64,000 bases of DNA from Candidatus Omnitrophota bacterium (GTDB lineage Bacteria > Omnitrophota > Gorgyraeia > B26-G9). The DNA is taken from NCBI GenBank assembly GCA_018817585.1, contig JAHITE010000081.1, forward strand, positions 4,549-68,548. Direction: 5' to 3'. Under the pieces are notes generated by a model. That model was not told where the DNA came from, searched no databases, and worked only from the letters and a program-made list of their open reading frames with translations. Shown here piece by piece: positions 12,975-56,629 of the stretch. Positions within the stretch are counted from its first letter, which is position 1. The number at the start of each line of letters is the position of its first letter. The translations under genes and the position numbers were made by a program.

Positions 12975-12985
12975 TTCTTAGCAAA

Positions 12986-30270: not shown

Positions 30271-31404
30271 TTATAAAACCTGGTTTTCTGGCAAATACTG
30301 TTTTAAAATTGCTTGAACAATGCGCTTAGCCGCACTGCCGTCACCATAAGGACTAGCGCTTTTAGACATTTGCAGATAGGCTGAATCGGAGCTTAACAGC
30401 AGATTTACCTGGCTTACAATATTAGCTGTATCCATGCCCACTAATTTTGCCACCCCGGCTTCTAGCCCTTCTTGACGCTCAGTAACTTCCCGCATAACTA
30501 AAATCGGCTTATTAAATGCCGGAGCCTCTTCCTGCACACCTCCGGAATCTGACAAAACTAAATAGCAATTCCTTAAAACATGAACAAAACTCTGATAATC
30601 CAATGGTTTTAGCAAGTGAACATTTTTCAGACCTTTGAGCATCTTATTTACCGGAGTCTGCACATTAGGATTTAAATGTACGGGATAAATAATTTCAACC
30701 TGGGGTAAAGCAGCAATCTGCTGAATTGCCTGACAAATCTGAGCAAAAGGCTGGCCAAAACTCTCTCTACGATGCGCTGTGACTAAAATAACTTTTTTAT
30801 GCTTAAAATCAATTCTTTTAATTTCACAATTAATTATCTTTTTTTTCCGAGCAACATACTGCAAAGCATCAATAACCGGATTGCCGGTTAAAAAAATCTT
30901 GTTCGGCTCTATTTTTTCATTAAGCAGATTTTGCCGCGCTTTTTTTGTCGGCGCAAAATGCATATCAGCAATCAAAGTCATCATCTGACGATTTATTTCT
31001 TCAGGAAAAGGCCGGTATTTGTCAAAAGTGCGTAAACCAGCTTCAACATGGCCCATCGGAATTTTAAGATAAAAAGCTGCTAAACTGGCAATAAAAGCTG
31101 TGGTTGTATCCCCTTCAACCAAGATTAAATTTGGCTTCTCCTTTTCCAGAACCTTGGATAATCTGGCTAAACAGCGGCAGGAGACATCAATTAATGTCTG
31201 ATTTTTCAGCATAATATCCAGATCATAATCCGGCTTAATTTTAAACAGCTGTAAAAACTGATCCACCATCTTCCGATGCTGACCAGTTAAAACAATCAAA
31301 GATTTAATCTGCTTTTTATGCTTAGCCAACTCATGCGCAACCGGCGCAAGTTTAATAACTTCCGGACGTGTGCCAAGGATAGTCATTACCTTAATTTTAG
31401 ACAT
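30271..31404 (-). CDS. wecB: UDP-N-acetylglucosamine 2-epimerase (non-hydrolysing)
   Basis: MKVMTILGTRPEVIKLAPV N-terminus; HVEAGLRT; 377 aa. Confidence 0.9.
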   Translation of the reverse strand: MSKIKVMTILGTRPEVIKLAPVAHELAKHKKQIKSLIVLTGQHRKMVDQFLQLFKIKPDYDLDIMLKNQTLIDVSCRCLARLSKVLEKEKPNLILVEGDTTTAFIASLAAFYLKIPMGHVEAGLRTFDKYRPFPEEINRQMMTLIADMHFAPTKKARQNLLNEKIEPNKIFLTGNPVIDALQYVARKKKIINCEIKRIDFKHKKVILVTAHRRESFGQPFAQICQAIQQIAALPQVEIIYPVHLNPNVQTPVNKMLKGLKNVHLLKPLDYQSFVHVLRNCYLVLSDSGGVQEEAPAFNKPILVMREVTERQEGLEAGVAKLVGMDTANIVSQVNLLLSSDSAYLQMSKSASPYGDGSAAKRIVQAILKQYLPENQVL

Positions 31405-31447
31405 CTATATTATTTCCCATTATTTAAAAATTAAACATTAAATTAAA

Positions 31448-31768
31448 TCACTTAACAATACTGCCGCTGGCAACCGGTTTATCCGGGCACAATACCGCCA
31501 CGCTATTCTCATCAGAAGCAGCCAGCATCATCCCCTGACTTTCCACGCCTCTTAAAACAACCGGTGCCAGATTATCCACTACCACTACCTGCTTGCCAAC
31601 CAGCTGTTCTTTTTCATATTTTAATTTTAATCCAGCAACAATTTGCTTTTCCACACCGCCAACATCGATTTTTATAATATACAGCTTATTGGCATCAGGA
31701 TGATCTAAAACCTCTTTGATTGTGGCGATTTTTAGTTCCATTTTTTTAAATTCTTCAAACGTAATCAT
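31448..31768 (-). CDS. tRNA-binding domain protein (CsaA/Trbp111-like)
   Basis: FKKMELKIATIKEVLDHPDADKLYIIKIDVG EMAP/Myf-like OB fold; 106 aa. Confidence 0.75.
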   Translation of the reverse strand: MITFEEFKKMELKIATIKEVLDHPDANKLYIIKIDVGGVEKQIVAGLKLKYEKEQLVGKQVVVVDNLAPVVLRGVESQGMMLAASDENSVAVLCPDKPVASGSIVK

Positions 31769-31793
31769 TATTTCCCCTTATCGTTAATTAAAA

Positions 31794-32300
31794 TTATAAT
31801 TTTTGATAATTATAGATTTTAATTCTGCCGGTCGCATTGACAATTGTTAAAGTATAATACTTGCCCTGCGAATTTTTTAAAAAAATGCTGGCATTGTCTT
31901 CGGCACTACCGGTTATATTAAAAATTTCAGCAGGCCGGCTGATCAGAACATGTGAATCAACCGGCAAAGTAGTGCTTTCAATTATTACTCCGGACGCGGT
32001 TTTCATTGAAGTAGTAATTAATTGCCTGGTTAATTGATCTGGTTTGGCAAAAATAAAATACTCAGAATTAGCTGGATCAAAAGCAACTCCATGCTCAATC
32101 TGATGAGTGATCGCCAAACTGCGAGCCTGATTAAGCGCGGCCATAATATTATTTGCTGAGATTTTTAGAGCAGCACCGGCTTTATAATTAAAAAAATACA
32201 CCGTGGTAAGCCCCATGAGCATTGTGATAATGCCTAAGACAACCATCATTTCTATCAAACTAACTGCTTTAATTTTTTTCATAATTAATAAGTATAACAC
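31794..32300 (-). CDS. Prepilin-type N-terminal cleavage/methylation domain protein (type IV pilin / pseudopilin)
   Basis: MKKIKAVSLIEMMVVLGIITMLMGL, with Glu at +5 after the predicted cleavage site. The start is ambiguous (GTG at 32300 or ATG at 32282). Confidence 0.75.
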   Translation of the reverse strand: MLYLLIMKKIKAVSLIEMMVVLGIITMLMGLTTVYFFNYKAGAALKISANNIMAALNQARSLAITHQIEHGVAFDPANSEYFIFAKPDQLTRQLITTSMKTASGVIIESTTLPVDSHVLISRPAEIFNITGSAEDNASIFLKNSQGKYYTLTIVNATGRIKIYNYQKL

Positions 32301-32337
32301 AAAATTTATTCAGATAACAAGGGATAAGAGTATAAAT

Positions 32338-32376
32338 GTGGGGTTAGTGGGGTTAGTGGGGTTAGTGGGGTTAGTG
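32338..32376. repeat. 9-bp tandem repeat (GGGTTAGTG, equivalent to GGGGTTAGT) in 4.3 copies, immediately upstream of the pilin gene promoter.
   Basis: gtg(gggttagtg)x4 read directly from the sequence. A TATACT -10-like hexamer follows on the minus strand. Confidence 0.9.
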
Positions 32377-32399
32377 CGTTGTCGCGTTAACTCGATAAC

Positions 32400-32850
32400 T
32401 CATAGAGAAATAAAAAAAGCCGGTAAGGGTAAACTTACTTTCGGCAACCCAGCCGCCATTGCGCTTTCCACCCTCGACAGTTTTCATTGTATTACTTTTC
32501 CTCCACTTGGGTCATGAAGGCTGGTATAAATAACTGTCGTAAGAATAGACACTTTAGGCCTGTAGCATTGCCTCGAATACAGAGCAAAAACTCAAAACTC
32601 TGCTTTCGAGGGCACTGTTCTGAGTAAATCAAAACAAGTGCCGCCCTCGCTTTTCAGCTCCCGATTGCATCATCCAAAAATGACACAATCCCAATAAATA
32701 GCCATAAATCCCTAGCTCTGGGCTAAGCGATCAATCAAAAACAATGAATTGACCAGCAAAGTGGGATCTCAATCACAGCATATCAAATCAATGAACTTGA
32801 GAGAGTTTGCCCTTATCGACTCTAATATAGATTGTACCATACAAATTGAA
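32400..32850 (-). ncRNA. Candidate structured non-coding RNA (~450 nt) of unknown class.
   Basis: A 600-bp gap with no ORF of 60 aa or more and GC clearly above the flanks. Extended -10 promoter TGcTATAAT on the minus strand (~32858-32866). Intrinsic terminator hairpin plus T7 on the minus strand (~32405-32435). Multiple long GC stems, e.g. cgagggcggcac...gtgccctcg and cctcgaa...ttcgagg. Confidence 0.45.
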
Positions 32851-32901
32851 TTATAGCAACTCTTTATAAAAGTATTTTTTATCAATAAAAAAATTTATTG
32901 C

Positions 32902-33270
32902 TTAATAACTGTATTCATCTTCAAACACAACCTTAAAATCAAAAATATTTTTAAAATCTTCAATATTATCATCTTCAGTTTTACCTAAAACACCAGCATC
33001 AACCATATTAAATACAATATTGCCAAAGTCCTCAGTAACTTTAACCCCCCAATGCTCAAGCACTGTTCTGGCCATTCTGCCGTATTCACACAAAGCATAG
33101 TCCCTAATACCTTCAGACAGCTCCTTACCGCTAACATGGCCTTTGCGTTTTAAACGCTGCATTGTAAAATTCAAGGCGCCTAGAATAAATGGATAAGCAT
33201 CCAGCTTATATCTTTTATCATGCTCGCAAATTACTGTCAAAACACTTATCATATCTTCTTTTGATTCCAT
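32902..33270 (-). CDS. Hypothetical protein (122 aa, acidic C-terminus)
   Basis: ORF with typical codon usage; no motif recognised. Confidence 0.4.
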   Translation of the reverse strand: MESKEDMISVLTVICEHDKRYKLDAYPFILGALNFTMQRLKRKGHVSGKELSEGIRDYALCEYGRMARTVLEHWGVKVTEDFGNIVFNMVDAGVLGKTEDDNIEDFKNIFDFKVVFEDEYSY

Positions 33271-33301
33271 TTTGCTATTACCTACCTCTAATTTTATTAT
33301 T

Positions 33302-34054
33302 TTAAAATTTAAATTTTCTCAAAGCTTCTATTGCCGAATACGCGGTTAAATCAAACTGTAAAGGAGTTATGGAAACAAAATTATCTTCAATCGCCCGAAT
33401 ATCAGTATCATCGGTTTTTTTAATCCATTGAGCTTTTCCCGTCAACCAATAATATATCCGGCCTCGAGGATCAAGTCTTTTTACAAATTCTTCTTTGTAC
33501 AAGGATTTACCTTGGCGAGTAATCTTAACTCCTTTAATTTTACTTTTTGCCGCGCTGGGGATATTCACATTAAGTAATACTCCGTCCTCAATGCCTTTTT
33601 TCTCAAATTTTTTAGCCAGAGTGCCGGCAAAATCAGCGGCAAAAGAAAAATCATGTTTCTCATATGTTGCTAAAGAAATCGCGATTGAAGGAATGCCAAG
33701 AATAGTTCCCTCGGTTGCCGCGGAAACAGTTCCTGAATACATAATATCTGAACCTAAATTAGGCCCGTGATTTATTCCGGAAATAATCATATGCGGCTTT
33801 TGCTTTAAAACACAGCGCACCGCAATCTTTACACAATCCGCGGGTGTGCCATTAACCGCATAGCCAAAGAATTTCTTATTTTTAATTATTTCCTTTATCC
33901 GCAAAGGCTTGCTCAGGGTTATGGCATGACCAATCGCGCTCTGTTCTGCTTCCGGGGCGCATACAGTTACATCATATTTTTTACTCAAACTCAGATAAAG
34001 CGCGTACAATCCATCTGAATTTATTCCATCATCATTGGTCAATAGTATCCGCAT
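33302..34054 (-). CDS. surE: 5'/3'-nucleotidase SurE
   Basis: MRILLTNDDGINSDGL N-terminal metal-binding motif; 250 aa. Confidence 0.9.
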   Translation of the reverse strand: MRILLTNDDGINSDGLYALYLSLSKKYDVTVCAPEAEQSAIGHAITLSKPLRIKEIIKNKKFFGYAVNGTPADCVKIAVRCVLKQKPHMIISGINHGPNLGSDIMYSGTVSAATEGTILGIPSIAISLATYEKHDFSFAADFAGTLAKKFEKKGIEDGVLLNVNIPSAAKSKIKGVKITRQGKSLYKEEFVKRLDPRGRIYYWLTGKAQWIKKTDDTDIRAIEDNFVSITPLQFDLTAYSAIEALRKFKF

Positions 34055-34134
34055 CCCGCAAACTCCCTGATTTAAATCTTTAATTAAACAGCTTTTGATA
34101 ATCCGCGAAAATTAATTTTAGAAAATAATAATCC

Positions 34135-35160
34135 TTATAAAGAAAATCTACCGAATATCAGCGATTTGCAATTCGAACAATGCCCATTTTTAAGGTTTAA
34201 TTCAACTTCATCATATTCTTTTCTTTTAATTATAATTTTTTTGCATTTCTGGCAATATGTATTTGCCGATAAATGCCCCGGGATATTGCCAATATACACA
34301 TAATTCAGCCCTTCTTTCATCGCCAGCAGCCGAGACTTTTCCAATAAACCCACAGGAGTAGGCACAACATCCTTAAATTCGCCATATGGAAAGAATCTGG
34401 TTAAGTGTAAAGGTGTGTCTTTGCCCAGTTCGGCAAACATCCAGGAAGCAATTTCTTTTATTTCCTTTTCACTGGAATTATATCCGGGAATAATATTAGT
34501 CACAACCTCAACATGCATCGCGTGCTTGCGTTTCGCGTCACTGGCATTACTGAATATAGTATTAATATCCGTTACAGCGGCAATCCGGGTATAACTCTCC
34601 ATAAAAGAGCCTTTAACATCAATACAAAGCCCGTCTGTATATTCCGCGATTGCATCAAAAGCTTTAGAGCCCAGATAACCATTAGTCACTAAACATGTAG
34701 ACAATCCCTCGGATTTCGCTAATTTAAATACATCCAAAACAAATTCAAGCCACATAGTTGGCTCATTATGGGAAAAGGCAATGCCTTTACAGCCGTTTCG
34801 CAATGCTTTTTTAACAACTATTTCCGGACTTAAATCATGGATTTTATTCACAACTTCTTTTACATCACAATGCGATAATCCCCATGACTGGCAGCCATGA
34901 CATTGAAAGTTGCAGCCCAAACCGCCCAACGAAAGCCATAAGCTGCCGGGAAAAAAATTATACATATGCTTTGTTTCTATCGGAGAAATACTGGATAAAG
35001 CAACTTTACCGTATGTAACAGTAATCAGCTGTCCATCTTGATTGTAACGCGTCTGACACCATCCCCACTGACCTTTATCAATAATACATTTACGCATACA
35101 TAAAAAACAGCGTACCGAGTCTTTCATATACGGTTCCCAAAATAAAGCATTTTTCAGCAT
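34135..35160 (-). CDS. AmmeMemoRadiSam-system-type radical SAM enzyme (AmrS-like; PFL-activase-related)
   Basis: N-terminal Cys cluster CFLCMRKC...WGWC. Radical SAM motif GCNFQCHGCQSW. SPIETKHMYNFFPG matches the family hallmark. 341 aa. Confidence 0.7.
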   Translation of the reverse strand: MLKNALFWEPYMKDSVRCFLCMRKCIIDKGQWGWCQTRYNQDGQLITVTYGKVALSSISPIETKHMYNFFPGSLWLSLGGLGCNFQCHGCQSWGLSHCDVKEVVNKIHDLSPEIVVKKALRNGCKGIAFSHNEPTMWLEFVLDVFKLAKSEGLSTCLVTNGYLGSKAFDAIAEYTDGLCIDVKGSFMESYTRIAAVTDINTIFSNASDAKRKHAMHVEVVTNIIPGYNSSEKEIKEIASWMFAELGKDTPLHLTRFFPYGEFKDVVPTPVGLLEKSRLLAMKEGLNYVYIGNIPGHLSANTYCQKCKKIIIKRKEYDEVELNLKNGHCSNCKSLIFGRFSL

Positions 35161-35164
35161 ATAA

Positions 35165-36895
35165 TTATTTCCTTCCCTGCAAATTAAACATTTGCTTAAT
35201 TTCTTCTACGGTAGTAGCATCTTTGGCTGCCTTATCAATGCGGATAAAACCTACTGTACGCGGGAAGCGCAAAGCATAACCAGTATCATCCTTACTATCT
35301 TTACCGCATGTATGCACCGGACTTTGAGTGATTTCATCAGCCTGGACTTCCACTACATAGAGCGGATCAACCCACACATCAGGCACAATTAAGGACTCAA
35401 CATTTTTCGGCATAAAATTTATTTTGATTTTATCAAGAGTTTCCTTAAACCGGACTAATTCATCGTCACTTAATCCAGTACCTATTTTAGCAATTGTTTT
35501 AAACCTGCCTACCGTTGGATCATAAACAGCAGCTAATAGGGATCCAATGCCAAATGCCGCTCTCAATCCTTTGCCAAAAAAATAGCCGATAATAACACAA
35601 TCAATCGTATCATTTAAATTGTCGGAATACGACTGTTTTAATTTTATCCAATTAAAATTTCTTCCTCCGGCCTTATATTCACCATCCAGGCGTTTGGCAA
35701 CAATGCCTTCCCGGCCCTGGGCAATAGCATCTTCAAATATTTCAGTTAAACGCTGGGCTGTTTTTACTTCTTCAACCGGAGATAATTCCAAAACCTTGCC
35801 TTTTTTGATCAACTCTGACATAATCTGCCGTCTTTGACTAAAAGCATACTGAGTTAAATCTTTATCCGCGTACAAAAGATCAAACACAAAAATCTTCAAA
35901 GGAAATTTTTCCCGAATGGATTCAATGCCATGCTTGCGCTTTCGCTGTACAGTTGTCTGAAAAGGCAAACACTGTCCGGTAGCTGGATCATAAGCCAAAG
36001 CTTCACCCTCGAAAATCACATTGCTTTCTTTTATCTGATCAAGAGTCCCCTGAATAATCTCCGGAAACATATGAGTTGTATTTTCCAGATTACGCGAAAA
36101 AATCTGAACTTTGTTGCCCATTTTATGCACTTGACAGCGGAACCCGTCATATTTTTCTTCCACAGCGCAAGTTCCGATTTTTTCAATAATCTCTTCTGGT
36201 CCGGATAATCGCGCTGCCAAGGCAACCCGAATCGGACAGCCGACCATTACTTTAAAATCAATAATACTGCTAATCCCCTTGGTAAATAATATTTTCGCCA
36301 CCAAGCCAAGATCAGAACAAAGATTATAAGCCCGCTCCAAATCCGGGCGTAAAAGTTTATCCTGATTATAGGCAAGGGAAAGACTGTCTAAAACAGTAGG
36401 ATCACCTACCCCCAATCTCAGCTTGCCTAAAATTATCCGAATAATATATTTTGCCTCAAGCGGACTGGCATTTTTTAATAAATCAGCAAGAAATTCGATT
36501 TTACGAGCCACTGATCCATCACCGGAAAACTCAGCGAGTTTTTCTAAATTCGCGTAAACCTGACTAATACTTAAAACTTCTAAATGATCTAAACAAACCT
36601 TTTCCGCGACTAATCCATAATCCCCAAGCTGATGAACCATTGCTTCAATATCATTTGATATCCCGCCGGTTGCCTGAACAATAGCGCGATGAATAAGTTT
36701 TTCACTGATTCCAAACTCAATATTGCGAAATGAAGGCAACAGCTGCCCCTGCGTAAGATAGATAATTTCATCTATTTTTTCTTTTTCTACTGGATCAAGA
36801 TTAGTAAAAAGCTCAGCTAAAATATCAGTCATCTCCAGCCGTTTAGCGGTATTTTCCAGCTTTTGAAAATAAGCAGCCAGTTGTTTAAATTTCAT
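35165..36895 (-). CDS. lig: ATP-dependent DNA ligase (LigI/archaeal-type, three-domain)
   Basis: Adenylation motif I EEKYDGFR (KxDG); OB domain; N-terminal DNA-binding domain; 576 aa. Confidence 0.85.
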   Translation of the reverse strand: MKFKQLAAYFQKLENTAKRLEMTDILAELFTNLDPVEKEKIDEIIYLTQGQLLPSFRNIEFGISEKLIHRAIVQATGGISNDIEAMVHQLGDYGLVAEKVCLDHLEVLSISQVYANLEKLAEFSGDGSVARKIEFLADLLKNASPLEAKYIIRIILGKLRLGVGDPTVLDSLSLAYNQDKLLRPDLERAYNLCSDLGLVAKILFTKGISSIIDFKVMVGCPIRVALAARLSGPEEIIEKIGTCAVEEKYDGFRCQVHKMGNKVQIFSRNLENTTHMFPEIIQGTLDQIKESNVIFEGEALAYDPATGQCLPFQTTVQRKRKHGIESIREKFPLKIFVFDLLYADKDLTQYAFSQRRQIMSELIKKGKVLELSPVEEVKTAQRLTEIFEDAIAQGREGIVAKRLDGEYKAGGRNFNWIKLKQSYSDNLNDTIDCVIIGYFFGKGLRAAFGIGSLLAAVYDPTVGRFKTIAKIGTGLSDDELVRFKETLDKIKINFMPKNVESLIVPDVWVDPLYVVEVQADEITQSPVHTCGKDSKDDTGYALRFPRTVGFIRIDKAAKDATTVEEIKQMFNLQGRK

Positions 36896-36898
36896 AAA

Positions 36899-37351
36899 TC
36901 ACTCGTATCCTTGTTTCCTAATCAGCTGCAGCGCTTTTTCCACAACCCCGCGCTCAGACTCAAAACTCAGTTTTTCTAAAGCTTTATCTATTGGCAGCCA
37001 TTCTACAGCATCAACTTCTCGATCATATTCCCGCGAAACCGTAGCCAGTTTTTTCATTAAAAAAAAGCGTACTGTTTTATCAAGCTCTAATTGGCGTTTT
37101 GGGTCAGTGTATTTATAATAAATGTCTTTAATATGTTCAATTATTATCGCTTTTACCCCTGTCTCTTCCGCTACTTCCCGGATTGCTGCCTGCTCAGAAG
37201 TTTCCCCGGATTCAAGCTTTCCCTTGGGCAAACACCACTCTGTCGCGTTTTTCCGGCTATATATTACAATCATCGGCAGCTGCTTGATAAAATTAAATAC
37301 AACCGCGCCGGCGGAAATTTCCTGTTTAGTTTTATACATAAACACACTCAT
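36899..37351 (-). CDS. NUDIX hydrolase
   Basis: Nudix box GKLESGETSEQAAIREVAEETGV; 150 aa. Confidence 0.85.
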   Translation of the reverse strand: MSVFMYKTKQEISAGAVVFNFIKQLPMIVIYSRKNATEWCLPKGKLESGETSEQAAIREVAEETGVKAIIIEHIKDIYYKYTDPKRQLELDKTVRFFLMKKLATVSREYDREVDAVEWLPIDKALEKLSFESERGVVEKALQLIRKQGYE

Positions 37352-37353
37352 TA

Positions 37354-38286
37354 TTATTCTTCAGGCAAAACCACTTGATTTTTTTCCTGAGATAAATATT
37401 GCTCTAAGGCCTGTTTCCAAAGACAAAGCTTTTTACCTGTAATTTTCTCAAACCGGCTTTTATCCATCACGGAAAACTTCGGTCTTTTCGCGGCACGCGC
37501 TATATAATCAGAATCAACCGGCTCAAGCTTTGCCTTTATTCCGGTTAATTCCAGGATTGCCTGCGCGAATTCAAACCAGCTGCATTGTCCGGAATTACTC
37601 ACATGGTAAATCCCATAGCTAGATTGCTCTGATTCAGATTGAAAAACCGATTTAGTCAGCCAAAACAAAGCTTGGGCTAAACTCAAGGTATATGTAGGCG
37701 ATCCGATTTGATCATTTACAACTTTAAGATCTCCATCAGCTCGCGCCTTATTAACAATTGCTTTAACAAAATTTTTCCCCTTAGTTCCAAACAGCCAGCT
37801 GGTTCTTACAATAATATACTCCGTCAAGCAAGCAGCAACGCGCTGTTCTGCTGCTAATTTGGAACATCCATAATAATTAAGCGGATAGGGTTTATCGGTT
37901 TCAATATAAGCAGTTTTTTTATTTCCATCAAACACATAATCAGTACTGATAAAAATCAGTTTCGCGTTATACTGCTGACATAAAAAAGCAATGTTCTCTG
38001 TTCCCAGAACATTCACTGCTTTTGCCTGTTCCTGCTCTGACTCAGCGAGATCAACATTAGTAAAAGCCGCGCCATGAATTACCATCCACGGTTTTATCTG
38101 TAAAAATAAAGCCTCCAGATCTTTTCGCTGAGTTATATCAGCTAAAAAAACTCTCGGTTTATCAGTGTCCGGATTTATATCAATACCGTAGACTTCATAA
38201 TCAGAATCAAATACTTGGCTTAAGTCCTGGCCAAGCATGCCCTGAATCCCTGTAATTAAGATCTTTTTTTTAATTTTTCCCATCAT
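37354..38286 (-). CDS. rmlD: dTDP-4-dehydrorhamnose reductase
   Basis: N-terminal KILITGIQGMLGQDL Rossmann motif; RmlD-like length and pattern; 310 aa. Confidence 0.7.
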   Translation of the reverse strand: MMGKIKKKILITGIQGMLGQDLSQVFDSDYEVYGIDINPDTDKPRVFLADITQRKDLEALFLQIKPWMVIHGAAFTNVDLAESEQEQAKAVNVLGTENIAFLCQQYNAKLIFISTDYVFDGNKKTAYIETDKPYPLNYYGCSKLAAEQRVAACLTEYIIVRTSWLFGTKGKNFVKAIVNKARADGDLKVVNDQIGSPTYTLSLAQALFWLTKSVFQSESEQSSYGIYHVSNSGQCSWFEFAQAILELTGIKAKLEPVDSDYIARAAKRPKFSVMDKSRFEKITGKKLCLWKQALEQYLSQEKNQVVLPEE

Positions 38287-38445
38287 TTTGAATTATTTTT
38301 CATACCATTCTAAAACCTGATCAAAATCAAATACAGGTTTAAATCCTAATTTTTTGAATATCCAAACTATATTTTCGGTCATGCCCTAATCTGTCGGGAA
38401 CATAAACATACCTTTAACTTAGATTTCAAGAGGACATAGACCCAA

Positions 38446-38474
38446 ATTTTAGCACAGAAAGCACTGAGTGTCAA
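38446..38474 (-). promoter_or_regulatory. Sigma70-type promoter for rmlD (-35 TTGACA, 17-nt spacer, -10 TAAAAT on the minus strand).
   Basis: Read directly: forward tgtcaa at 38469-38474 and atttta at 38446-38451. Confidence 0.55.
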
Positions 38475-38510
38475 ATAATCATCTCTGCGGAAAAAATGAA
38501 TTTTTCGCCA

Positions 38511-38547
38511 AATTTTCCCGCTTTTCCCGCTTTTCCCGCTTTTCCCC
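38511..38547. repeat. 9-bp tandem repeat CTTTTCCCG (3 perfect and 2 imperfect copies) abutting the -35 of the plus-strand promoter.
   Basis: aattttcccg-cttttcccg-cttttcccg-cttttcccc, then TTGCTA (-35), 17 nt, TATACT (-10) at 38548-38576. Confidence 0.9.
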
Positions 38548-38642
38548 TTGCTAATCCGCAGATTTTCAAGTATACTATGCCTTTGTTTAATAAATATTTA
38601 ATTATCCAGCTATTATTATTTGATTTATAAAAATAGAGTATT

Positions 38643-41363
38643 ATGAAAAATCAATTATGGCAATTTACAAATCGTAACGGAGATTTTACTTTTCCGGATG
38701 CGCATAAGATCAGCCGCCTATACTTCCCGCTGGCTAATGAAGCGGAATTTATGTCTTCAATCACTCCTCTGCTGAGAGGCGATATTAAAATCGGGCAAAA
38801 CAACTTTTTAATGCAGCCGATCACCAGCGAGGATCTGAGCAGCTCTTTTTCCGGAAGAAATTTCTGGGTTTATCTTAATCCCCATACTTACTGGTCAATA
38901 AGCGGCGCCCCTTACTCCTGTAGTCCTGAAGAAAGCGTAAATTTAAAAGCCGGGATTCTCTGGCATGGAATAAAACGTTCGAATGAAAAGATCGGGCTCA
39001 GCGCTGAAGTAACTAATTTTATTCCCGCAAAAGGTGAGCATGTAGAATTAATGACCATAAAAATCACTAATATTTCGGCGCGGGCAATTACTTTTACTCC
39101 GACAAGCGCGATTCCGATATTCGGCCGTTCTGCTGACAATTTACGCGATCACCGGCATGTTACCAGTTTGCTGCACCGCACCGCTTTGACCAAAAACGGA
39201 ATTATCATTAAGCCGGAAATGTCTTTTGATGAACGCGGACATGAAATAAATTATTTTTCCTATTTTGTTATTGGCTGCGATGAAAACAGTAATTTACCTG
39301 TGGGGCAATTCCCGTCTATTGAATCTTTTATTGGTGAAGGCGGCAATCTAATCGCTCCCAGAGCAATCATGGAAAACCTAACTCCGTTTAAAAAAATCGA
39401 AAACCGTCATCATGGAAAAGAATCAATCGGAGCTTTACGCTTTCAAACTAAAACCTTGATTCCTGATGAATCAATTACGTATATTCTTATGCTCGGAATC
39501 GCCCAGAATAAAAATGAGTTCAATAAGATATTTAAACGCTTTAACGGAAAAGAAAAAGTTAAAAACGCTTTAACGGAAAATATAGATTATTGGAAAAAAA
39601 GGATTGACGCGATTAGTTTTTGCACTGGAGAAATCACTAATGATAATTGGCTGCGCTGGGTCACCCTGCAGCCTATTTTAAGAAAGATCTTCGGCTGTTC
39701 ATTTTTGCCTGATTTTGATTATGGCCGCGGCGGAAAAGGCTGGCGGGATTTATGGCAGGACTGCTTAACCCTTATTCTCGCCCATCCGCAGCAGACCCGG
39801 GATATTCTGGCAGCAAACTTTTCAGGCATTAGGATTGATGGAACCAATGCCACGATCATTACCAAAAAGCTAGGTGTATTTATATCAGACCGCAATAAGA
39901 TCAGCCGAGTATGGATGGATCATGGTGTTTGGCCTTTATTTACTTTAGAGTTATATATTCACCAAACCGGTGATTTTGATATACTGTTTGAACATTGCTC
40001 TTATTTTTATGATTCTCAGCTTTCCCGGGCTAAGGACATTGATTTAAACTGGAATCCGAAACTTAAACACAGCAAACAACTGCATACCAAAGACGGACAT
40101 GTTTATAGCGGCACTATTCTTGAACATACTTTAGTCCAGCATTTGGTGCAATTTTTTAATGTAGGCAAACACAATAATATCCGATTAGAAGACGCTGATT
40201 GGAATGACGGTTTGGACATGGCTAGTGAAAAAGGTGAAAGCGTTGCCTTTACCTGTTTTTATGCTCGAAATATCTATGAGATTTCCATGCTTTTGATTGA
40301 ACTGAAAAAAAAGAGAAAAAAGAAAAACATCGTGATTTCCAAAGAGCTGTATCTCCTGCTGGATACTTTGCATAAGAATCCTGTGAATTACAATAGCGTT
40401 GAGAAAAAAACCGCTTTATTACATCAATATTTCAAGGCAGTTAAATACCGGGTCTCCGGGAAAAAAGTTTCAGTTAAAATTGATGATCTTATTTCCGACT
40501 TATCACAAAAATGGCAATGGTTATTTGCCCATGTCCGCAAAAAAGAATGGATTAACATCAACAACCAAATCGGCTTTTTTAATGGATATTACAATAATAA
40601 GAGCAAACGGGTCGAAGGCAAAATAAACGGTCAAATGCGCATGACTCTCACCGGACAGGTATTCCCAATTATGAGCGGCGCGGCTTCAAAAAAACAAATA
40701 AAACATATTTATTCCGCGGCCAACAAATACCTTAAAGATAAAAAACTAAATGCTTTTCGCCTGAACACAAACTTTAAGAACCCGCAGTTTGATTTAGGAC
40801 GCGCTTTTGCTTTTTCCTATGGGGATAAGGAAAATGGGGCGATATTCAGCCATATGTGCGTTATGTTTGCTTATGCGCTTTATCAACGCAACTTTGTAAA
40901 AGAAGGTTATACTGTTTTAAACAGTTTATTCGAGCTAGCGACTAACACCAATGTCAGCAAAATTTATCCTTGTCTGCCGGAATATTTTAATCTTGAAGGA
41001 AAAGGTCTTTACTCTTATTTAACTGGATCAGCCAGCTGGTATATTTTAACCATGCTCACTGAAGTTTTTGGAATTAAAGGACATTTTGGGGATCTGGTAA
41101 TTGAACCAAAGCTTACCCGCGAACAATTCAGCAATACTGATACAGTATCTACTTCCTGCTATTTTGCCGATAGACGGATAAGCATTATTATTCAAAACCC
41201 CACTAAATTAGAATACGCTGATTACAAAATAATCAGTTTAAAGATAAAACCAACGCAGGTTGATTATAAAAAAGTTTCTGCGAATAAAATAAAAATTCTT
41301 CGCAAGAATATTACTGAATTCCCCAAGAATACGCATATTACCATTGAAGTACTCCTGGGATAA
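38643..41363 (+). CDS. Large (alpha/alpha)6 six-hairpin glycoside hydrolase/phosphorylase-like protein (GH94-like?)
   Basis: 906 aa. The motif EDADWNDGLDM resembles the catalytic-acid region of GH94-type phosphorylases. Family assignment is tentative. Confidence 0.4.
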   Translation: MKNQLWQFTNRNGDFTFPDAHKISRLYFPLANEAEFMSSITPLLRGDIKIGQNNFLMQPITSEDLSSSFSGRNFWVYLNPHTYWSISGAPYSCSPEESVNLKAGILWHGIKRSNEKIGLSAEVTNFIPAKGEHVELMTIKITNISARAITFTPTSAIPIFGRSADNLRDHRHVTSLLHRTALTKNGIIIKPEMSFDERGHEINYFSYFVIGCDENSNLPVGQFPSIESFIGEGGNLIAPRAIMENLTPFKKIENRHHGKESIGALRFQTKTLIPDESITYILMLGIAQNKNEFNKIFKRFNGKEKVKNALTENIDYWKKRIDAISFCTGEITNDNWLRWVTLQPILRKIFGCSFLPDFDYGRGGKGWRDLWQDCLTLILAHPQQTRDILAANFSGIRIDGTNATIITKKLGVFISDRNKISRVWMDHGVWPLFTLELYIHQTGDFDILFEHCSYFYDSQLSRAKDIDLNWNPKLKHSKQLHTKDGHVYSGTILEHTLVQHLVQFFNVGKHNNIRLEDADWNDGLDMASEKGESVAFTCFYARNIYEISMLLIELKKKRKKKNIVISKELYLLLDTLHKNPVNYNSVEKKTALLHQYFKAVKYRVSGKKVSVKIDDLISDLSQKWQWLFAHVRKKEWININNQIGFFNGYYNNKSKRVEGKINGQMRMTLTGQVFPIMSGAASKKQIKHIYSAANKYLKDKKLNAFRLNTNFKNPQFDLGRAFAFSYGDKENGAIFSHMCVMFAYALYQRNFVKEGYTVLNSLFELATNTNVSKIYPCLPEYFNLEGKGLYSYLTGSASWYILTMLTEVFGIKGHFGDLVIEPKLTREQFSNTDTVSTSCYFADRRISIIIQNPTKLEYADYKIISLKIKPTQVDYKKVSANKIKILRKNITEFPKNTHITIEVLLG

Positions 41364-41369
41364 ACTTCA

Positions 41370-41490
41370 CCCAGGTCACCTGGGTCACAAGTTAAAAGCA
41401 TTAAGTAAACAATTACGAGTTATGAGTGACGAATTAAAAAGCCTAAAACTTAAAACTCATAATTCATCACTCGTAATTCATAACTATTTT
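41370..41490. terminator. Palindrome-rich convergent-gene junction (putative bidirectional terminator).
   Basis: acccaggtCacctgggt palindrome (41372-41388). Imperfect inverted repeat aattacgagttatgagtgacgaatt / aattcatcactcgtaattcataac (41411-41488). Confidence 0.45.
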
Positions 41491-41494
41491 TAAG

Positions 41495-42460
41495 TTAGAG
41501 CGGAATAAAAAAAGACATGATTGTCACAAAAAGCGGTACAGTAATAATCCCGCAAACATGGGTTAAAAACACGGCCTGAGTTATATAACCGCATGATTCA
41601 CTTTGCTTAAACGAAACAACGCTAAGATTAATTGCTGCCGGCATAGCAGCTTCAATCAGGAGTAATATAGACATATATTTCGGCAGTTTCAAAAAAACAA
41701 CTATAAACAAAACAATCGCCGGAACAACTACTAATTTCAGGATAACTGTTTTTAGCAATAAACCGGAATTTAATTTATAAACCTTACCACCGTCACAAGC
41801 CGCTAAAATAGCTCCCAAAACAATCAAAGCAACCGGCAAAGTACATCCCCCGACCAAATCAGTGGCTTGTAAAAATAGTTTAGGGATATAGATTTTAAGA
41901 TTTAAGCAAAGAATCAGCCCTGCAAAAATTAATGCTAAAAAAGGCGGATTTAATATTTTCTTAAATTCGAATTTTATTTTTTTCTCACTGTTTAAAAACT
42001 GAATGCCCAAGCTCCAGAATATAAGATTATACCCCTGGATAAAAAGAAATATATAGGTAAACAAGACACTGGTTTGTTTTTCCGAAAATATAGACATCAC
42101 AAGGATTAAGGGCAAATAACCGCAGTTCTGAAATGAAACAATACTCGCTAATTCATTTTTCTGAACAATGCTTTTATCAAATTGGAGAAAAACCTTAGCT
42201 GCAATAAAGCCAATCAGACAAATAATCATTCCTAAAAACGGATAAAGCCACCAGTCCTTAGGATCAGTAAAACTAAACTTTTTAATTAAATGACTGAAAA
42301 TCATTGCCGGTAAAAAAAGATTTATGATTAGATTGGATAAGCCGCTGATCGCCGTTTTATCCAGTAATTTCCATCTAAAAAATAAAAAACCGCAAAGCGC
42401 GATTGTGAAAATCTGGAGCATTGCCGTAAAAACAGTGTAAAATGTAAGTAAAAATTCCAT
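41495..42460 (-). CDS. Auxin-efflux-carrier (AEC) family membrane transporter
   Basis: 321 aa with about 10 TM helices, split 5+5 by a central loop, typical of AEC/malate permease family. Confidence 0.65.
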   Translation of the reverse strand: MEFLLTFYTVFTAMLQIFTIALCGFLFFRWKLLDKTAISGLSNLIINLFLPAMIFSHLIKKFSFTDPKDWWLYPFLGMIICLIGFIAAKVFLQFDKSIVQKNELASIVSFQNCGYLPLILVMSIFSEKQTSVLFTYIFLFIQGYNLIFWSLGIQFLNSEKKIKFEFKKILNPPFLALIFAGLILCLNLKIYIPKLFLQATDLVGGCTLPVALIVLGAILAACDGGKVYKLNSGLLLKTVILKLVVVPAIVLFIVVFLKLPKYMSILLLIEAAMPAAINLSVVSFKQSESCGYITQAVFLTHVCGIITVPLFVTIMSFFIPL

Positions 42461-42567
42461 GAGATTAGTTTTGGTTAAATTTATTTTTTGATTTTTCTTA
42501 AAAGAGAATCACTATAAAGGATTCCGCGTAAAGTCAACAAGAATATCAGCAGATGGCTTATTCAGAA

Positions 42568-42747
42568 TTAAATAGTAATTACCTTACCAAGCAGATACAC
42601 ATCTATAGCTCCTCCAAGCAGTTGCGAAGGAATACTCGTTGAATTACCAACGCAGATATTCACCATTTCTTTAATGATGTCTGCTTCTTCAGCTGTGAGT
42701 GTAGAGTTTTTTCTTTTATAACTTTCTAAATCATAACATGTTAGCAT
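42568..42747 (-). CDS. Unannotated small ORF (59 aa, just under the ORF-track cutoff).
   Basis: My translation: MLTCYDLESYKRKNSTLTAEEADIIKEMVNICVGNSTSIPSQLLGGAIDVYLLGKVITI. AT-rich third codon positions consistent with neighbouring genes. Lies in the 370-bp gap upstream of the AEC transporter on the same strand. Confidence 0.3.
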   Translation of the reverse strand: MLTCYDLESYKRKNSTLTAEEADIIKEMVNICVGNSTSIPSQLLGGAIDVYLLGKVITI

Positions 42748-42830
42748 ATATTTGTAAAGAATTTATTCGATAAAAAGAAATAAAAAGAAATAATTACATT
42801 GTTTTATCTCTTGATTTAGCCTATAATTAA

Positions 42831-44792
42831 GTGATTATGATATACGACGCGTTTCAAAAACGAGCAATTAATAGTACTGACAGCGGCAATTCAGTAATTG
42901 TCTGTGCCCCAACAGGCGCGGGAAAAACAGCTATTGCCGAATATGTTATTGAAAAATGCATAGCTGAAAACAAGGGGATTGTTTATACTGCTCCGATCAA
43001 AGCACTCTCCAATCAGAAATTTCGCGATTTTTCCCGAAAATACGGTAATCATATTGGAATACTCACTGGTGATGTCAGCTTAAACGCTAATGCCCCGATA
43101 TTGATCATGACTACTGAGATCTTCCGCAATACCTTACTGGAAGACCCCTTGCGCTTAAAAAACATATCCTGGGTTATTTTTGATGAAATCCATTATCTTG
43201 ACGATCCGGAACGAGGCACGGTTTGGGAAGAATCAATTATTTTTTGTCCGGAACACATAAAAATCCTAGCCTTGAGCGCAACGATTCCCAATGCGATCCA
43301 ATTATCTTCCTGGATTAGAAATATCCATAAACATCCGGTTGAAACCATTATCGAAAAAAAACGGCCAGTTCCCTTGCATCATTGTTTTCAGGCGCATAAC
43401 CGGGTTCTTGATAATTTTGAACAGCTTAAAAAAAATATTTACGAACAGGTAAAAAGAACTCATCCCCGTTCCAAAAAACACCATTCTTTTCAAAATTTTC
43501 GCCATGAAGAAAAAACTGCTTCGGCAAATAAGATATCCTCGCTTCTTCATCATTTACAGGAAAATGACAAGATGCCGGCAATCTACTTTGCTTTTAGCCG
43601 CAAACGCTGCGAAAAACTGGCTTTTGAAAGCAGAAATTTTAATTTTCTTGAAGATCAGGAACAAGCGGAATTAAAAGATATATTTGCTAATTTACTTAAA
43701 AAATACGGGTTAACGCAGGAGCCATCGGCAATTAGAATGCGCGGTTTAATTGAAAACGGAGTTGCTTATCATCATGCCGGATTATTGCCAAGTTTAAAAG
43801 AAGTTGTTGAACAATTATTTACCAGCCGGCTGATTAAACTTATCTTCACTACCGAGACTTTTGCTTTGGGAATTAACATGCCGGCAAGAACAGTAATTTT
43901 TGATGAACTCCGCAAGTTTTACGGTCAGTTCTTCGCTAATCTGCGTACCCGGGATTATTATCAAATGGCTGGCCGTGCCGGACGCCGCGGCATTGACACT
44001 GAAGGTTTTGTATACTCAAGGATAAATCCTCTGCGCATTGAACTAGACCAAATAAATAAAATGATCTTTGCTCAGCCGGAACCAGTACTCAGTCAATTCA
44101 ATTTATCTTATGCCAGTTTACTGCATCTTTATGGAACGTGGCAGGACCGCTTATATGAGGTCTATCCGCAAACTCTGCATTTTTATCAAGCGAATAAGCG
44201 CTCGCGGAAAAAAGCTTTGGAAATTTTACATACAAAGATAAGACTGCTTAAAGAAATGGACTATATCCGGGATCACAAGCTGACTGATAAAGGAAAGTTC
44301 GCCTCTTCTATTTATGGATATGAACTGCTTTTAACTGAGCTTTTCTTTTGCAGGGTGCTGGAAGAGTTGTCGAGCATTGATCTTAATATTGTGCTTACAT
44401 CTTTAGTTTTTGAACCAAGAAAAAATCAATTAAACATTAAACTCCCTCACCAGATTATTAAAATTAATAAAAAATTATCTCCGGTTGTTGAAGATATTTT
44501 AAAAATTGAAAAAAAACACAAGATCCGGCCGCTGACTAAAAAACCGTTCTTTAATCTTTCGGAAGCAGTAGAAAAATGGTCAACTAATGAATCGCTGGCT
44601 GTAATCACCGACGGAACGAATGCTGATCCCGGTGAAATAGTCAGATATTTTAGAATGGTAATCCAAATCCTCCGCCAATTGCGCGCTATCCCCTTTATCA
44701 GCAGTAATTTTAAGCAGAATATTTCCCGATCATTAGAAATGATCAATCGGGATGAAGTTGATGCTGAAAAACAATTAAGAGAAGGCCTCTAG
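42831..44792 (+). CDS. Superfamily-2 DEAD/DEAH-box helicase (DEIH, Ski2/HelY-like)
   Basis: Walker A APTGAGKT; DEIH box; SAT; helicase motif VI QMAGRAGRRG; 653 aa. Confidence 0.8.
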   Translation: MIMIYDAFQKRAINSTDSGNSVIVCAPTGAGKTAIAEYVIEKCIAENKGIVYTAPIKALSNQKFRDFSRKYGNHIGILTGDVSLNANAPILIMTTEIFRNTLLEDPLRLKNISWVIFDEIHYLDDPERGTVWEESIIFCPEHIKILALSATIPNAIQLSSWIRNIHKHPVETIIEKKRPVPLHHCFQAHNRVLDNFEQLKKNIYEQVKRTHPRSKKHHSFQNFRHEEKTASANKISSLLHHLQENDKMPAIYFAFSRKRCEKLAFESRNFNFLEDQEQAELKDIFANLLKKYGLTQEPSAIRMRGLIENGVAYHHAGLLPSLKEVVEQLFTSRLIKLIFTTETFALGINMPARTVIFDELRKFYGQFFANLRTRDYYQMAGRAGRRGIDTEGFVYSRINPLRIELDQINKMIFAQPEPVLSQFNLSYASLLHLYGTWQDRLYEVYPQTLHFYQANKRSRKKALEILHTKIRLLKEMDYIRDHKLTDKGKFASSIYGYELLLTELFFCRVLEELSSIDLNIVLTSLVFEPRKNQLNIKLPHQIIKINKKLSPVVEDILKIEKKHKIRPLTKKPFFNLSEAVEKWSTNESLAVITDGTNADPGEIVRYFRMVIQILRQLRAIPFISSNFKQNISRSLEMINRDEVDAEKQLREGL

Positions 44793-44796
44793 ATAT

Positions 44797-45300
44797 TTAC
44801 TCTTGATTCAGAGTAATGTCCTGTTGCGGTAAATTCCCAACCACAAATATTCTCATCGCCGGCAAACTAAGCGGATTCTTATATCCGTTATATTTTATAT
44901 TAATATCGTAATTACCCGGAGTTTCTGGTAAAAATTTGGCTGTAAATTTAATTCTTTTCTTGGGATAAAGCCGGATGTTTTCTAATTTTAAGCCGTAAAT
45001 ACTCAGCATCTTATCTTTTTTACCATCAGGAGCAACGATTTCAAACATAAATGATGATTTATCAATAGCCGGTTCAACAATATCAATCGGTTCTGCTGTC
45101 TTATTTTTAAGATAAACCGTAATCATTACTTCCTGGTCTAGTTTATAAATCATCTTGTCGATTTTTGCCTGCATAGACAGACCACTATTATTACCAAATA
45201 GCTCCTGATCATTTAAAGAAAAACACTGATTTGTTAATCCCGCAAAAATTAAGAAACTTAAAACAATCAACAATCCTCTTCTTAACACTATCTGGCTCAT
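44797..45300 (-). CDS. Secreted hypothetical protein
   Basis: Signal peptide LSFLIFAGLTNQCFS; 167 aa. Confidence 0.4.
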   Translation of the reverse strand: MSQIVLRRGLLIVLSFLIFAGLTNQCFSLNDQELFGNNSGLSMQAKIDKMIYKLDQEVMITVYLKNKTAEPIDIVEPAIDKSSFMFEIVAPDGKKDKMLSIYGLKLENIRLYPKKRIKFTAKFLPETPGNYDINIKYNGYKNPLSLPAMRIFVVGNLPQQDITLNQE

Positions 45301-45311
45301 TCATCCCCCTG

Positions 45312-46484
45312 CTATTTTTTTATGCAACTATCAACAAAGATTTTTATACATTTAATTGCTTCCTGCAGTTTTGAATAATTTGTCGCGTATGATATCCGGA
45401 TATGCTGATCATAATCTTTACCAAAAGCAACTCCCGGGACAACTGCGACTTTTTGCTGTTTTAAAAGCTTATTGGCAAAATCAAGAGAACTAAGTCCGGT
45501 TTTTTTAATTGAAGGAAAAATATAAAAAGCGCCCTGCGGCATATCGCAGGAAAGGCCGATTTCATTTAATCCCTGATGCATGAGATCTCTTCGGCGATTG
45601 TACTCCTTTTTCATATCTTCTAAACTTTTTTTACCAGTTTGTAAAGCTTCGCAGGCAGCCATTTGGCTGAGGATCGGAGCGCAAAGAATCGTATATTGGT
45701 GGATTTTAGTCATTGCCGCGATTATTGATTTTGGACCACAGGCATACCCCACTCTCCATCCGGTCATAGCATAAGCTTTAGAAAAACCATTAAGATATAA
45801 TGTATTTGCTTGAGCGCCGCTTAAACAGGGAAAAGGAATATGCTTTCCCGTATAAGTCAAATCACCATAAACCTCGTCGCTAATAACTACTAAATTATGT
45901 TTCAGGCAAACCCGGCTGATCGATTCCAGCTCTTTTTTATTATAAGTAACCCCGGTAGGATTAGAAGGATAATTTAAGATTATTCCTTTTGTTTTATTAT
46001 TACAAGCTTTTTCCAGCTTGGCCGCGGTTATTTTAAAACCTTCTTTTGCCGTAGTTGGTAAATACACCGGAACGCCGCCGGCCAACTCAACTACCGGCCC
46101 ATAAGAAACATAACATGGCTCAGGAATAATAACCTGATCCCCTGGGTTTAAAATCGCCCGCACAGCCAAATCCAGCGCTTCGCTTACCCCGACAGTAATC
46201 AGAATATCATCATCCGGAGAATAATTTAAACCATAAAGCTGTTTTAGCGATCTTTGAATCAATAATCTGAGTTTATATAAACCTTTATTTGAAGTATATG
46301 AGGTATAGCCCTGCTCCAGAGAAAAAATTCCAGTTTCTCGGATATTCCAGGGAGTTACAAAATCCGGTTCCCCCACACCCAGACTAATAACATCCTTCAT
46401 TCCCAGCACAAGATCAAAAAAAGCTCTGATTCCCGAAGGAGCTAATTTTTCAACTTTATCTGCTACAAAATTTTTATTCTTCAC
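45312..46484 (-). CDS. Class I/II pyridoxal-phosphate-dependent aminotransferase (aspartate aminotransferase family)
   Basis: PLP-lysine region NGFSKAYAMTGWRVGY; 390 aa. Confidence 0.85.
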   Translation of the reverse strand: MKNKNFVADKVEKLAPSGIRAFFDLVLGMKDVISLGVGEPDFVTPWNIRETGIFSLEQGYTSYTSNKGLYKLRLLIQRSLKQLYGLNYSPDDDILITVGVSEALDLAVRAILNPGDQVIIPEPCYVSYGPVVELAGGVPVYLPTTAKEGFKITAAKLEKACNNKTKGIILNYPSNPTGVTYNKKELESISRVCLKHNLVVISDEVYGDLTYTGKHIPFPCLSGAQANTLYLNGFSKAYAMTGWRVGYACGPKSIIAAMTKIHQYTILCAPILSQMAACEALQTGKKSLEDMKKEYNRRRDLMHQGLNEIGLSCDMPQGAFYIFPSIKKTGLSSLDFANKLLKQQKVAVVPGVAFGKDYDQHIRISYATNYSKLQEAIKCIKIFVDSCIKK

Positions 46485-46510
46485 GAAATTCTCCGCTTGC
46501 TGCTGTTAAT

Positions 46511-46996
46511 TTAATATGAAATCGCGATACGTTTATTTTCTTCTTTGCGTTTTAAAATCACTCCGTCTTCTTTATATTTTTTCAGCAGAAAATGAGTAAC
46601 TGTTCCGCGAACATTTTCCATCGGAGAAAGTTTTTCCGCCACAAAATTTGATATTGTCTGCATGTCTTTGCCTTCTACGATTAAAAGTAAATCATATGTT
46701 CCTGAAAGCAGAGAACAACTAGCAACTTCCGGAAACTGGTAAATCCGTTCGGCAATATGATCAAAACCCAGATTTTTTTGCGGCAGGATATTTACTTCGA
46801 TCAAAGCTCTTAATTCATTATTTTTTTTCACAACTAGTTCTTTATTTACAATTGTTTTATATTTAAGAATAACCCCGTCTTTTTCAAATTTATTAATTTG
46901 TTTTTTTACGGTTTTCACATCCTGCTTAATTAACCGGGCAATTTCCTCAGGAGTGGTTCTCGCGTCTTTTTCTAGAATTTCTAGGATTCTATCCAT
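46511..46996 (-). CDS. Lrp/AsnC family transcriptional regulator
   Basis: N-terminal HTH DARTTPEEIARLI; C-terminal RAM domain; 161 aa. Confidence 0.85.
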   Translation of the reverse strand: MDRILEILEKDARTTPEEIARLIKQDVKTVKKQINKFEKDGVILKYKTIVNKELVVKKNNELRALIEVNILPQKNLGFDHIAERIYQFPEVASCSLLSGTYDLLLIVEGKDMQTISNFVAEKLSPMENVRGTVTHFLLKKYKEDGVILKRKEENKRIAISY

Positions 46997-46997
46997 T

Positions 46998-47237: not shown

Positions 47238-47361
47238 TTTAATTCCTCCTGTTTATCTTAAATTTTTTTATCAAAATTAATAGGCTTAACATTATTAATC
47301 CTAACATGATAACGTTTTTTTTTCAAGCTGCATTTTTATTAGATCAAACTTTTTATTGTTC

Positions 47362-48750: not shown

Positions 48751-48768
48751 ACAATCACCGCCAGTAGA

Positions 48769-51562: not shown

Positions 51563-51602
51563 GATAATTCGATCTCCTTTTTATTTTTTTAAACATACTC
51601 AA

Positions 51603-56619: not shown

Positions 56620-56629
56620 TCAACCAATC

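Follow-up and report, generated by a model that had tools for sequence, protein, structure and literature searches.

A variable 9-bp tandem repeat upstream of a minor pilin promoter in a Candidatus Omnitrophota genome

In host-adapted pathogens, variable repeats associated with promoters are a well-known phenomenon. The locus described here raises the question of whether a perfect 9-bp tandem repeat, located upstream of a pilin-family gene of a Candidatus Omnitrophota bacterium, belongs to the same class, and what a change in its copy number could mean for the expression of this gene. The repeat lies near the middle of a stretch of 64,000 nt (GCA_018817585.1, contig JAHITE010000081.1, 4,549-68,548), all of which was analysed and which is called the window below. 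Omnitrophota are uncultivated, with very small and possibly host-dependent cells, and type-4 pili are believed to be important in this phylum as mediators of attachment (PMC10066038). No paper linking Omnitrophota with promoter-associated variable repeats or phase variation turned up in a full-text search. The pilin repeat is a promoter-associated variable tandem repeat, that is, an element of a known kind in an unusual phylum. Outpacing base substitution and standing before a pilus-related operon, it is a candidate for stochastic variation of a surface structure, as well as a marker that separates otherwise identical populations in metagenomes. The favoured reading, to which a probability of about 0.5 is given, is that the tract is a young slippage-prone 9-bp minisatellite (VNTR), located distally upstream of a conserved, near-leaderless minor-pilin promoter, with a graded effect on expression, if any.

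The repeat tract and the pilin operon

Tandem Repeats Finder (TRF) gave the tract the top score of the 64-kb window (78), with a period of 9, 4.3 copies and 100% matches. On the plus strand it is (GTGGGGTTA)x4.3, which reads gt(ggggttagt)x4g, and on the strand of the pilin gene it is (CACTAACCC)x4.3, i.e. four units plus CAC. Thus, the four perfect 9-bp units upstream of a prepilin-type gene, as reported in a preliminary description of this DNA, were recovered as described, and the tract is perfect, as is expected of a contingency locus. Four perfect head-to-tail copies are not a product of chance, because the first unit fixes 27 bases. Single GGGTTAGTG 9-mers beyond the array are not above chance in the window (10 hits vs 6.6 expected, with at most one mismatch), and the unit was found upstream of no other gene within the window; it is the array, not isolated 9-mers, that is the striking feature of the tract.

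Table 1. Features of the pilin locus and the second perfect repeat (window coordinates)
Feature	Position	Strand	Basis
Perfect 9-bp tandem repeat, 4.3 copies, no mismatch	32338..32376	-	TRF and direct reading
GspH/FimT-type minor pilin (pseudopilin) gene, 162 aa	31794..32282	-	Pfam, NCBIfam, source annotation
Predicted sigma-70-type promoter of the pilin operon: TTGTTA 32320..32315, 18-nt spacer, TATACT 32296..32291	32291..32320	-	Promoter scan and conservation
A/T-rich 17-nt UP-element-like segment atttatactcttatccc between the repeat and the -35	32321..32337	-	Alignment with relatives
Degenerate 8-nt periodic units gagttatc gagttaac gcgacaac gcactaac	32370..32401	-	Lag-8 autocorrelation
Candidate non-coding RNA, ~413 nt	32412..32824	-	nhmmer, alignment, consensus fold
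Terminator-like 3' end: bulged GCCG..CGGC hairpin, then U7 (32418..32412)	32412..32445	-	Sequence and fold
Second perfect 9-bp repeat, (TTTTCCCGC)x3.8	38513..38546	+	TRF (score 68, 100% matches)

Several other functions were considered for the tract and rejected. A plus-strand ORF (32203..32517), in which the repeat would read GLVGLVGLVGLV, had 0 homologues among 5.8 billion proteins and overlaps the pilin start in antisense, while a minus-strand ORF that terminates with the first unit's TAA is disrupted in one relative, L005 (ATG TAA), and has no ATG in another, L010. No meaningful Rfam family was found for the repeat or the adjacent non-coding region, either in the whole window, in the region 32250..32950 at E-values up to 10 or at six related loci, and no tRNA or tmRNA was found. 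A Rho-utilisation (rut) site, suggested by the C-rich, G-free transcript strand, was dropped: it would fit only read-through from the upstream RNA, and the same reading fails for the second repeat, which is located between divergent promoters.

The promoter and the gene behind the repeat were compared with those of seven distinct relatives (L004, L005, L007, L009, L010, L014 and L017), whose pilins are 68-77% identical to that of the window and whose coding DNA is ~75% identical. The start codon of the pilin gene kept in all relatives is the ATG at 32282, giving the prepilin leader MKKIKA|VSLIE. The product matches Pfam N_methyl with 21.6 bits (cut-off 21.2) and GspH with 19 bits (cut-off 21), all NCBIfam GspH and ComGD matches being sub-threshold, and its homologues are annotated at source as prepilin-type or GspH/FimT family proteins of Candidatus Omnitrophota. 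The gene, called simply a pilin in the preliminary description, is indeed of the prepilin type, but these profiles point to a minor pilin or pseudopilin of the GspH/FimT type rather than a major one. It opens a gene string kept in all relatives (pilin, tRNA_bind, Epimerase_2 and a ~210-aa protein), which in the window is followed by a gene for a 905-aa GspK-like protein.

Copy number and origin of the repeat

A shorter allele is present in the ENA contig ERZ27247128:k141_1695101 (L001, 95.7 kb), which was found by exact look-up of the pilin protein and carries (CACTAACCC)x3.3 vs 4.3 copies in the window. This contig matches positions 31341..42291 of the window over 10,942 bases with 0 mismatches and a single 9-base gap at the repeat, and over a further 21 kb (L018, window 41603..62606) it has 0 substitutions as well. 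Altogether, the 31.3 kb compared contain no substitution, and the sole differences are two slippage-type indels. The second indel (~57720..57725), T6 in the window vs T7 in the ENA contig, is located inside an RNase E/G gene, which is frameshifted by T6 in the window (ORF 57705..58850, 381 aa vs 505 aa); this difference may be a true polymorphism of the homopolymer or else an error of assembly.

The heterogeneity in copy number that the preliminary description had proposed to look for is therefore present, in two alleles, each from one assembly, and the repeat resembles a contingency locus in varying between near-identical genomes. It has mutated at least once while more than 31,000 bases gained no substitution, and its per-locus mutation rate is probably, as a rough inference, thousands of times the per-base substitution rate. 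As the homopolymer indel shows, near-clonal genomes simply begin to differ by repeat indels. An assembly artefact behind the difference between three and four units is unlikely, because the tract, at 39 bp, falls short of both the read length and the final k, which to judge from the contig names was 141. Exact look-ups with four proteins as queries (pilin, tRNA_bind, GH94 and the 122-aa neighbour) returned only the ENA contig and one Logan contig (SRR6514274, L002), which is 980 bp long and stops 18 nt short of the repeat, and is thus uninformative on copy number. Scans of genomes and metagenomes for further alleles found only 77%-identical relatives, and two-unit patterns searched in viral contigs gave matches to unrelated sequences only.

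Another point concerning these contigs is that L001 and L002, although assembled independently, both end exactly at position 31341 of the window, inside a UDP-GlcNAc 2-epimerase gene. None of the k-mers starting from 31341 is repeated in the window, and the 377-aa epimerase product of the window has no database record; since both assemblies also stop there, a strain-variable junction left of 31341 is suggested.

The relatives indicate how the array may have arisen. L005/L006 carry one unit plus CAC (CACTAACCCCAC), identical at 12/12 positions and at the same distance from the -35, and the corresponding position is occupied by ATAACCTCCACA in L010 (10/12 identical) and by GGCTAACTCCAC in L014 (9/12 identical), whereas the motif is absent from 3/7 relatives (L004, L007 and L017). 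The ancestral state would accordingly be a single copy in which CAC..CAC microhomology, 9 nt apart, formed a natural seed for the first duplication. The expansion is probably recent, because relatives hold a single copy of the unit at the same place, and, on this comparison, expansion to three or four copies appears specific to the lineage of the window.

The perfect repeat adjoins an older one. Immediately upstream of it lies the degenerate 8-nt array (Table 1), the last unit of which overlaps the first perfect 9-bp unit. The consensus of this array is GMGWNAAC, and homologous (GMGWNAAC)n arrays occur in relatives: lag-8 autocorrelation gave z values of +4.5 for the non-perfect part in the window, +3.8 in L005, +7.1 in L010, +3.0 in L014 and +5.0 for an inverted array in L004, while the upstream array of L007 has a lag of 7 (z +4.5). 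The similar array of L004 is followed, on the opposite strand and after 17 nt, by another -35 (TTGACA-17-TATATT), which is the spacing seen in the window. The pilin promoter thus appears to have a long-lived zone of repeats, in which the perfect 9-mer array is the most recent layer; the persistence of this zone could be due to a local slippage bias or to a function of the arrays, for example as an operator array.

Units of 8 nt were also observed elsewhere in the window, in two inverted arms (12985..13020 and 13134..13173) located ~110 nt apart between convergent genes. The arms are composed of such units (CCTTGTGA / TCACAAGG), and the motif CCTTGTGAC is also found upstream of the L005 pilin promoter, with a variant in L004.

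Promoter geometry and the expected effect of copy number

The predicted promoter of the pilin operon carries TG in its spacer (32299..32298) and was also recovered by a consensus promoter scan as TTGTTA-18-TATACT with the upstream TG; its -10 is separated from the ATG by 8 nt. The same promoter is found in all seven relatives, as TTGT(T/A)(A/T), a TG-containing 18-nt spacer, TATACT, 8 nt and ATG, except that the spacer is 16 nt in L017 and the distance between the -10 and the ATG is 7 nt in L007. As the -10 is located just 8 nt from the ATG, with no Shine-Dalgarno sequence, the mRNA of the pilin operon would be leaderless or nearly so.

Relative to this promoter, which is predicted and not mapped, the repeat occupies approximately -54 to -92, or 56-94 bp upstream of the ATG at 32282. 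The distance of 38-76 bp given in the preliminary description had been counted from a GTG at 32300, the start of the longest ORF, which is in fact part of the extended -10. That description had further likened the repeat to those that sit in promoter spacers or UP regions, taken the TATACT hexamer beside it as -10-like, and proposed that changes in copy number would shift the promoter geometry and switch pilin expression. The comparison with the relatives gives no support to a position in the spacer or to this -10, and the proposed mechanism is supported only in part. The repeat ends 17 nt upstream of the -35, outside the spacer between -35 and -10 and with no contact with the -35, which is not the position of a spacer-type tract; relative to the predicted promoter it is upstream of the -35, as rheostat-type repeats are. 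The intervening 17-nt A/T-rich segment, which includes the TATACT beside the repeat, is 88% identical in L005 and L014 and 47-76% identical in the other relatives, compared with ~75% for coding DNA. It lies on the promoter side of the repeat and hence stays fixed when the copy number changes, and upstream of the repeat, apart from the degenerate 8-nt array, there is only the end of the non-coding transcript.

Classical ON/OFF phase variation through the -35/-10 geometry would require the TATACT at 32334..32329 to act as the -10. This hexamer is only 3 nt from the repeat, and the copy number does vary, but the corresponding -35 would lie inside the repeat and share at most 2/6 positions with TTGACA. 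The hexamer is not conserved in L004, L007, L009, L010 and L017, while the promoter conserved in all relatives, with its TATACT at 32296..32291, is located 17 nt further downstream. The core promoter and the proximal UP-like segment are left unaltered by the gain or loss of a unit, and an ON/OFF switch of this kind is therefore very improbable.

According to the favoured minisatellite reading, a seed of 1.3 copies of the unit would first have been duplicated, and the length of the tract would then change by replication slippage. Each unit gained or lost would mean one copy more or fewer of a partly conserved upstream motif and would shift everything upstream by 9 bp, or ~0.86 of a helical turn, and with the step from three to four units the template strand would gain a run capable of forming a G-quadruplex. 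If expression is affected at all, the result would likely be a graded (rheostat-like) output of the pilin operon; it is possible that copy number affects pilin expression, but gradually at most. The presence of a second promoter-adjacent perfect 9-bp repeat, which is also lineage-specific, supports the minisatellite reading. Against graded control, the second repeat is not polymorphic, and it precedes a GH94 glycoside phosphorylase or hydrolase gene, which is unlike typical contingency genes. The repeat also leaves the spacing of the core promoter and of the proximal A/T-rich segment unaltered, no distal operator or regulator was found, and three of the seven relatives lack the unit motif. To judge from the T6/T7 indel, repeat indels may simply be the most frequent kind of mutation at this locus and carry no adaptive meaning.

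In spacer-type phase variation, as in the TA repeats of Haemophilus hif, the homopolymers of Neisseria opc/porA and the poly-C tract of Bordetella fim, the variable tract is located between -35 and -10. The pilin repeat shares with these systems a length-changing (slippage) repeat in the promoter region of a pilus or adhesin gene, but it lies well upstream of the -35 and thus lacks their defining geometry. Graded control by repeats upstream of the -35 is known for the TAAA tract of Neisseria meningitidis nadA (PMC2791445) and for the T-tract rheostat of Helicobacter pylori sabA (PMC4081817). Like these, the pilin repeat is a perfect slippage-prone tract upstream of the -35 of a gene for an adhesin or surface structure and varies in length between close variants; the core promoter likewise remains intact, and the output is therefore expected to be graded and not all-or-none. 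The differences are a unit of 9 bp, compared with 4 bp in nadA and 1 bp in sabA, a fixed 17-nt A/T-rich segment that parts the tract from the -35, and an uncultivated environmental bacterium in place of host-adapted pathogens. In addition, flanking operators (NadR or IHF) are known for nadA and not for the pilin repeat.

Alternative readings and neighbouring elements

The only other perfect repeat of the window (Table 1) is located within a divergent promoter region, as judged by the promoter scan. It lies directly against the -35 of a conserved promoter that serves a GH94 gene (TTGCTA at 38548, 17-nt spacer, TATACT ending at 38576). The ENA contig has the same number of copies, whereas the homologous promoter of L005 lacks the repeat and shows only ...tttttctcTTGCTA. 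Five or six tandem copies of TTTTCCCGC were also observed in an unrelated viral contig, IMGVR_UViG_3300027708_001953 (L033, 1015..1050).

The pilin repeat may be simply a neutral by-product of replication slippage, in an intergenic stretch where short tandem duplications arise and are tolerated, its changes in copy number having no effect on pilin expression; this is a serious rival to the favoured reading, albeit a less likely one. Such an origin agrees with the slippage nature of the sole other difference in 31.3 kb, with the integrity of the core promoter and proximal A/T-rich segment, and with the arrays of the relatives, which differ in unit and period (8 nt, or 7 nt in L007) or are absent (L004 and L017), as would be expected from unconstrained turnover. 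It fits less well with the location of both perfect repeats directly upstream of conserved promoters, although intergenic DNA makes up a small fraction of the window, with the conservation of the duplicated unit in L005 and L010, which equals or exceeds that of the core promoter, and with the persistence of periodic arrays at this promoter across species whose coding DNA is ~75% identical. The same persistence of arrays with periods of 7-8 nt in several species could instead reflect an array of transcription factor sites, in which the unit, or the older 8-nt GMGWNAAC, would be a putative operator half-site read cooperatively, and expansion would change occupancy. Tandem sites are read in this way by MetJ (8-bp boxes) and omega (7-bp heptads), and PilR has four sites upstream of pilA. 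Conservation of the unit motif in L005, L014 and L010, and the L004 array with its spacing like that of the window, are in favour of this proposal. However, no candidate regulator was found, the neighbouring 122-aa protein being a member of the Minf_1886 family with no assigned function; the unit is absent upstream of other genes in the window, and a change of the period from 8 to 9 nt would disturb cooperative binding, so that an operator array is quite improbable.

A further alternative is that the copy number gates a G-quadruplex or i-motif: four units place four GGGG tracts upstream of the promoter on the template strand, whereas no such motif exists with three, and the folded structure, or proteins bound to it, would modulate transcription or local recombination and replication. 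On the plus strand the tract is G4N5G4N5G4N5G4, which has the four G3+ tracts with loops of 1-7 nt that define a quadruplex motif, whereas the three-copy allele of L001 has no such motif. On both strands of the 64 kb, exactly two (G3+N1-7)x4 motifs were found, compared with a mean of 0.16 in shuffled sequences, and these are the two perfect repeats, the second carrying its motif on the minus strand. Both are intergenic and have exactly four tracts, and in both the downstream gene has the G-rich strand as its antisense strand. The pilin repeat is the best site of the window by G4Hunter (2.04), and ViennaRNA with quadruplex terms predicted -26 kcal/mol for the four-unit plus strand and no quadruplex for the three-unit strand, with an energy model that is derived from RNA. 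Thus, the resemblance to telomeric repeats, dismissed in the preliminary description as probably coincidental, deserves more weight, since four units form a canonical G-quadruplex motif. Nevertheless, any 9-nt unit with a G3 run would qualify at four copies, and two instances make a weak case; by our own rough estimate, a G or C triplet would occur in both units by chance with a probability of ~0.015. The relatives have no quadruplex motif at either promoter, and ~20 kb from each of the loci of three relatives contained 0. As a quadruplex candidate, the second repeat is weak (G4Hunter 1.36, -2.9 kcal/mol), and folding within duplex DNA in vivo is hypothetical. A gated quadruplex is therefore doubtful, and it appears just as doubtful that Omnitrophota use expandable 9-bp minisatellites as gated G-quadruplex/i-motif switches, with the GH94 promoter as a second example. 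If true, four vs three units would make a simple natural DNA structure gated by repeat length in a bacterial promoter, and one slippage event would toggle a structure that alters the transcription of a pilus-related operon.

In Neisseria gonorrhoeae a G4 element at pilE serves for pilin antigenic variation. The pilin repeat is similar to it in placing a quadruplex motif upstream of a pilin-family gene, but here the gene encodes a minor pseudopilin, and the motif, which is made of tandem repeats, occurs neither in relatives nor in the three-copy allele. A system of the Neisseria pilE/pilS type was rejected, as tblastn and blastn of the pilin against the 64-kb window matched only the gene itself, and neither further pilin copies nor silent donor copies were found. 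The pilE element is also mentioned by Rehm et al. 2015 (PMC4692102), who described G-rich GGGNATC-type 7-nt repeats of unknown function in Xanthomonas and Nostoc. These repeats and those of the window have in common an intergenic location, units of 6-9 nt with a G-tract, an antisense bias of the G-rich strand relative to the downstream ORF, four units as the quadruplex minimum and a unit number that varies between related genomes. The repeats of the window differ in unit length and sequence, in numbering two instances in 64 kb, in the G+C content of the genome (38%) and in that their folding is predicted by a model.

The DNA between the Minf_1886-family gene and the pilin promoter contains a conserved candidate non-coding RNA, which forms the context of the repeat and is not part of it. 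The candidate RNA has its own conserved promoter (32859..32831; TTGCTA/TTGTTA, then TGTGGTACAAT) and nhmmer hits in L005/L006, L010/L011 and L012, with partial hits in L014, L017 and L009. In the consensus fold, which contains 5 compensatory base pairs, the 5' end GAGUCGAUAAGGGCAAACU pairs with the 3' end at 17/19 positions. No match was found in Rfam, and the ~413-nt region is therefore considered a candidate for a new structured RNA. The upstream terminator named in the preliminary description corresponds to the 3' end of this RNA: the U7 tract is present, but the local hairpin is weak when taken alone (-10 kcal/mol, z 0.41), and the 3' half of this hairpin has an alternative pairing partner in the 5' end of the candidate RNA. 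In L005 (~9400..9600) and L014 (~1200..1400), the stretch that separates the pilin promoter from the end of the non-coding RNA carries an extra element of ~200 nt, which is absent from the window and has no Rfam match; its orientations in L005 and L014 are opposite, and it may represent an RNA gene or else a small element that is mobile or invertible.
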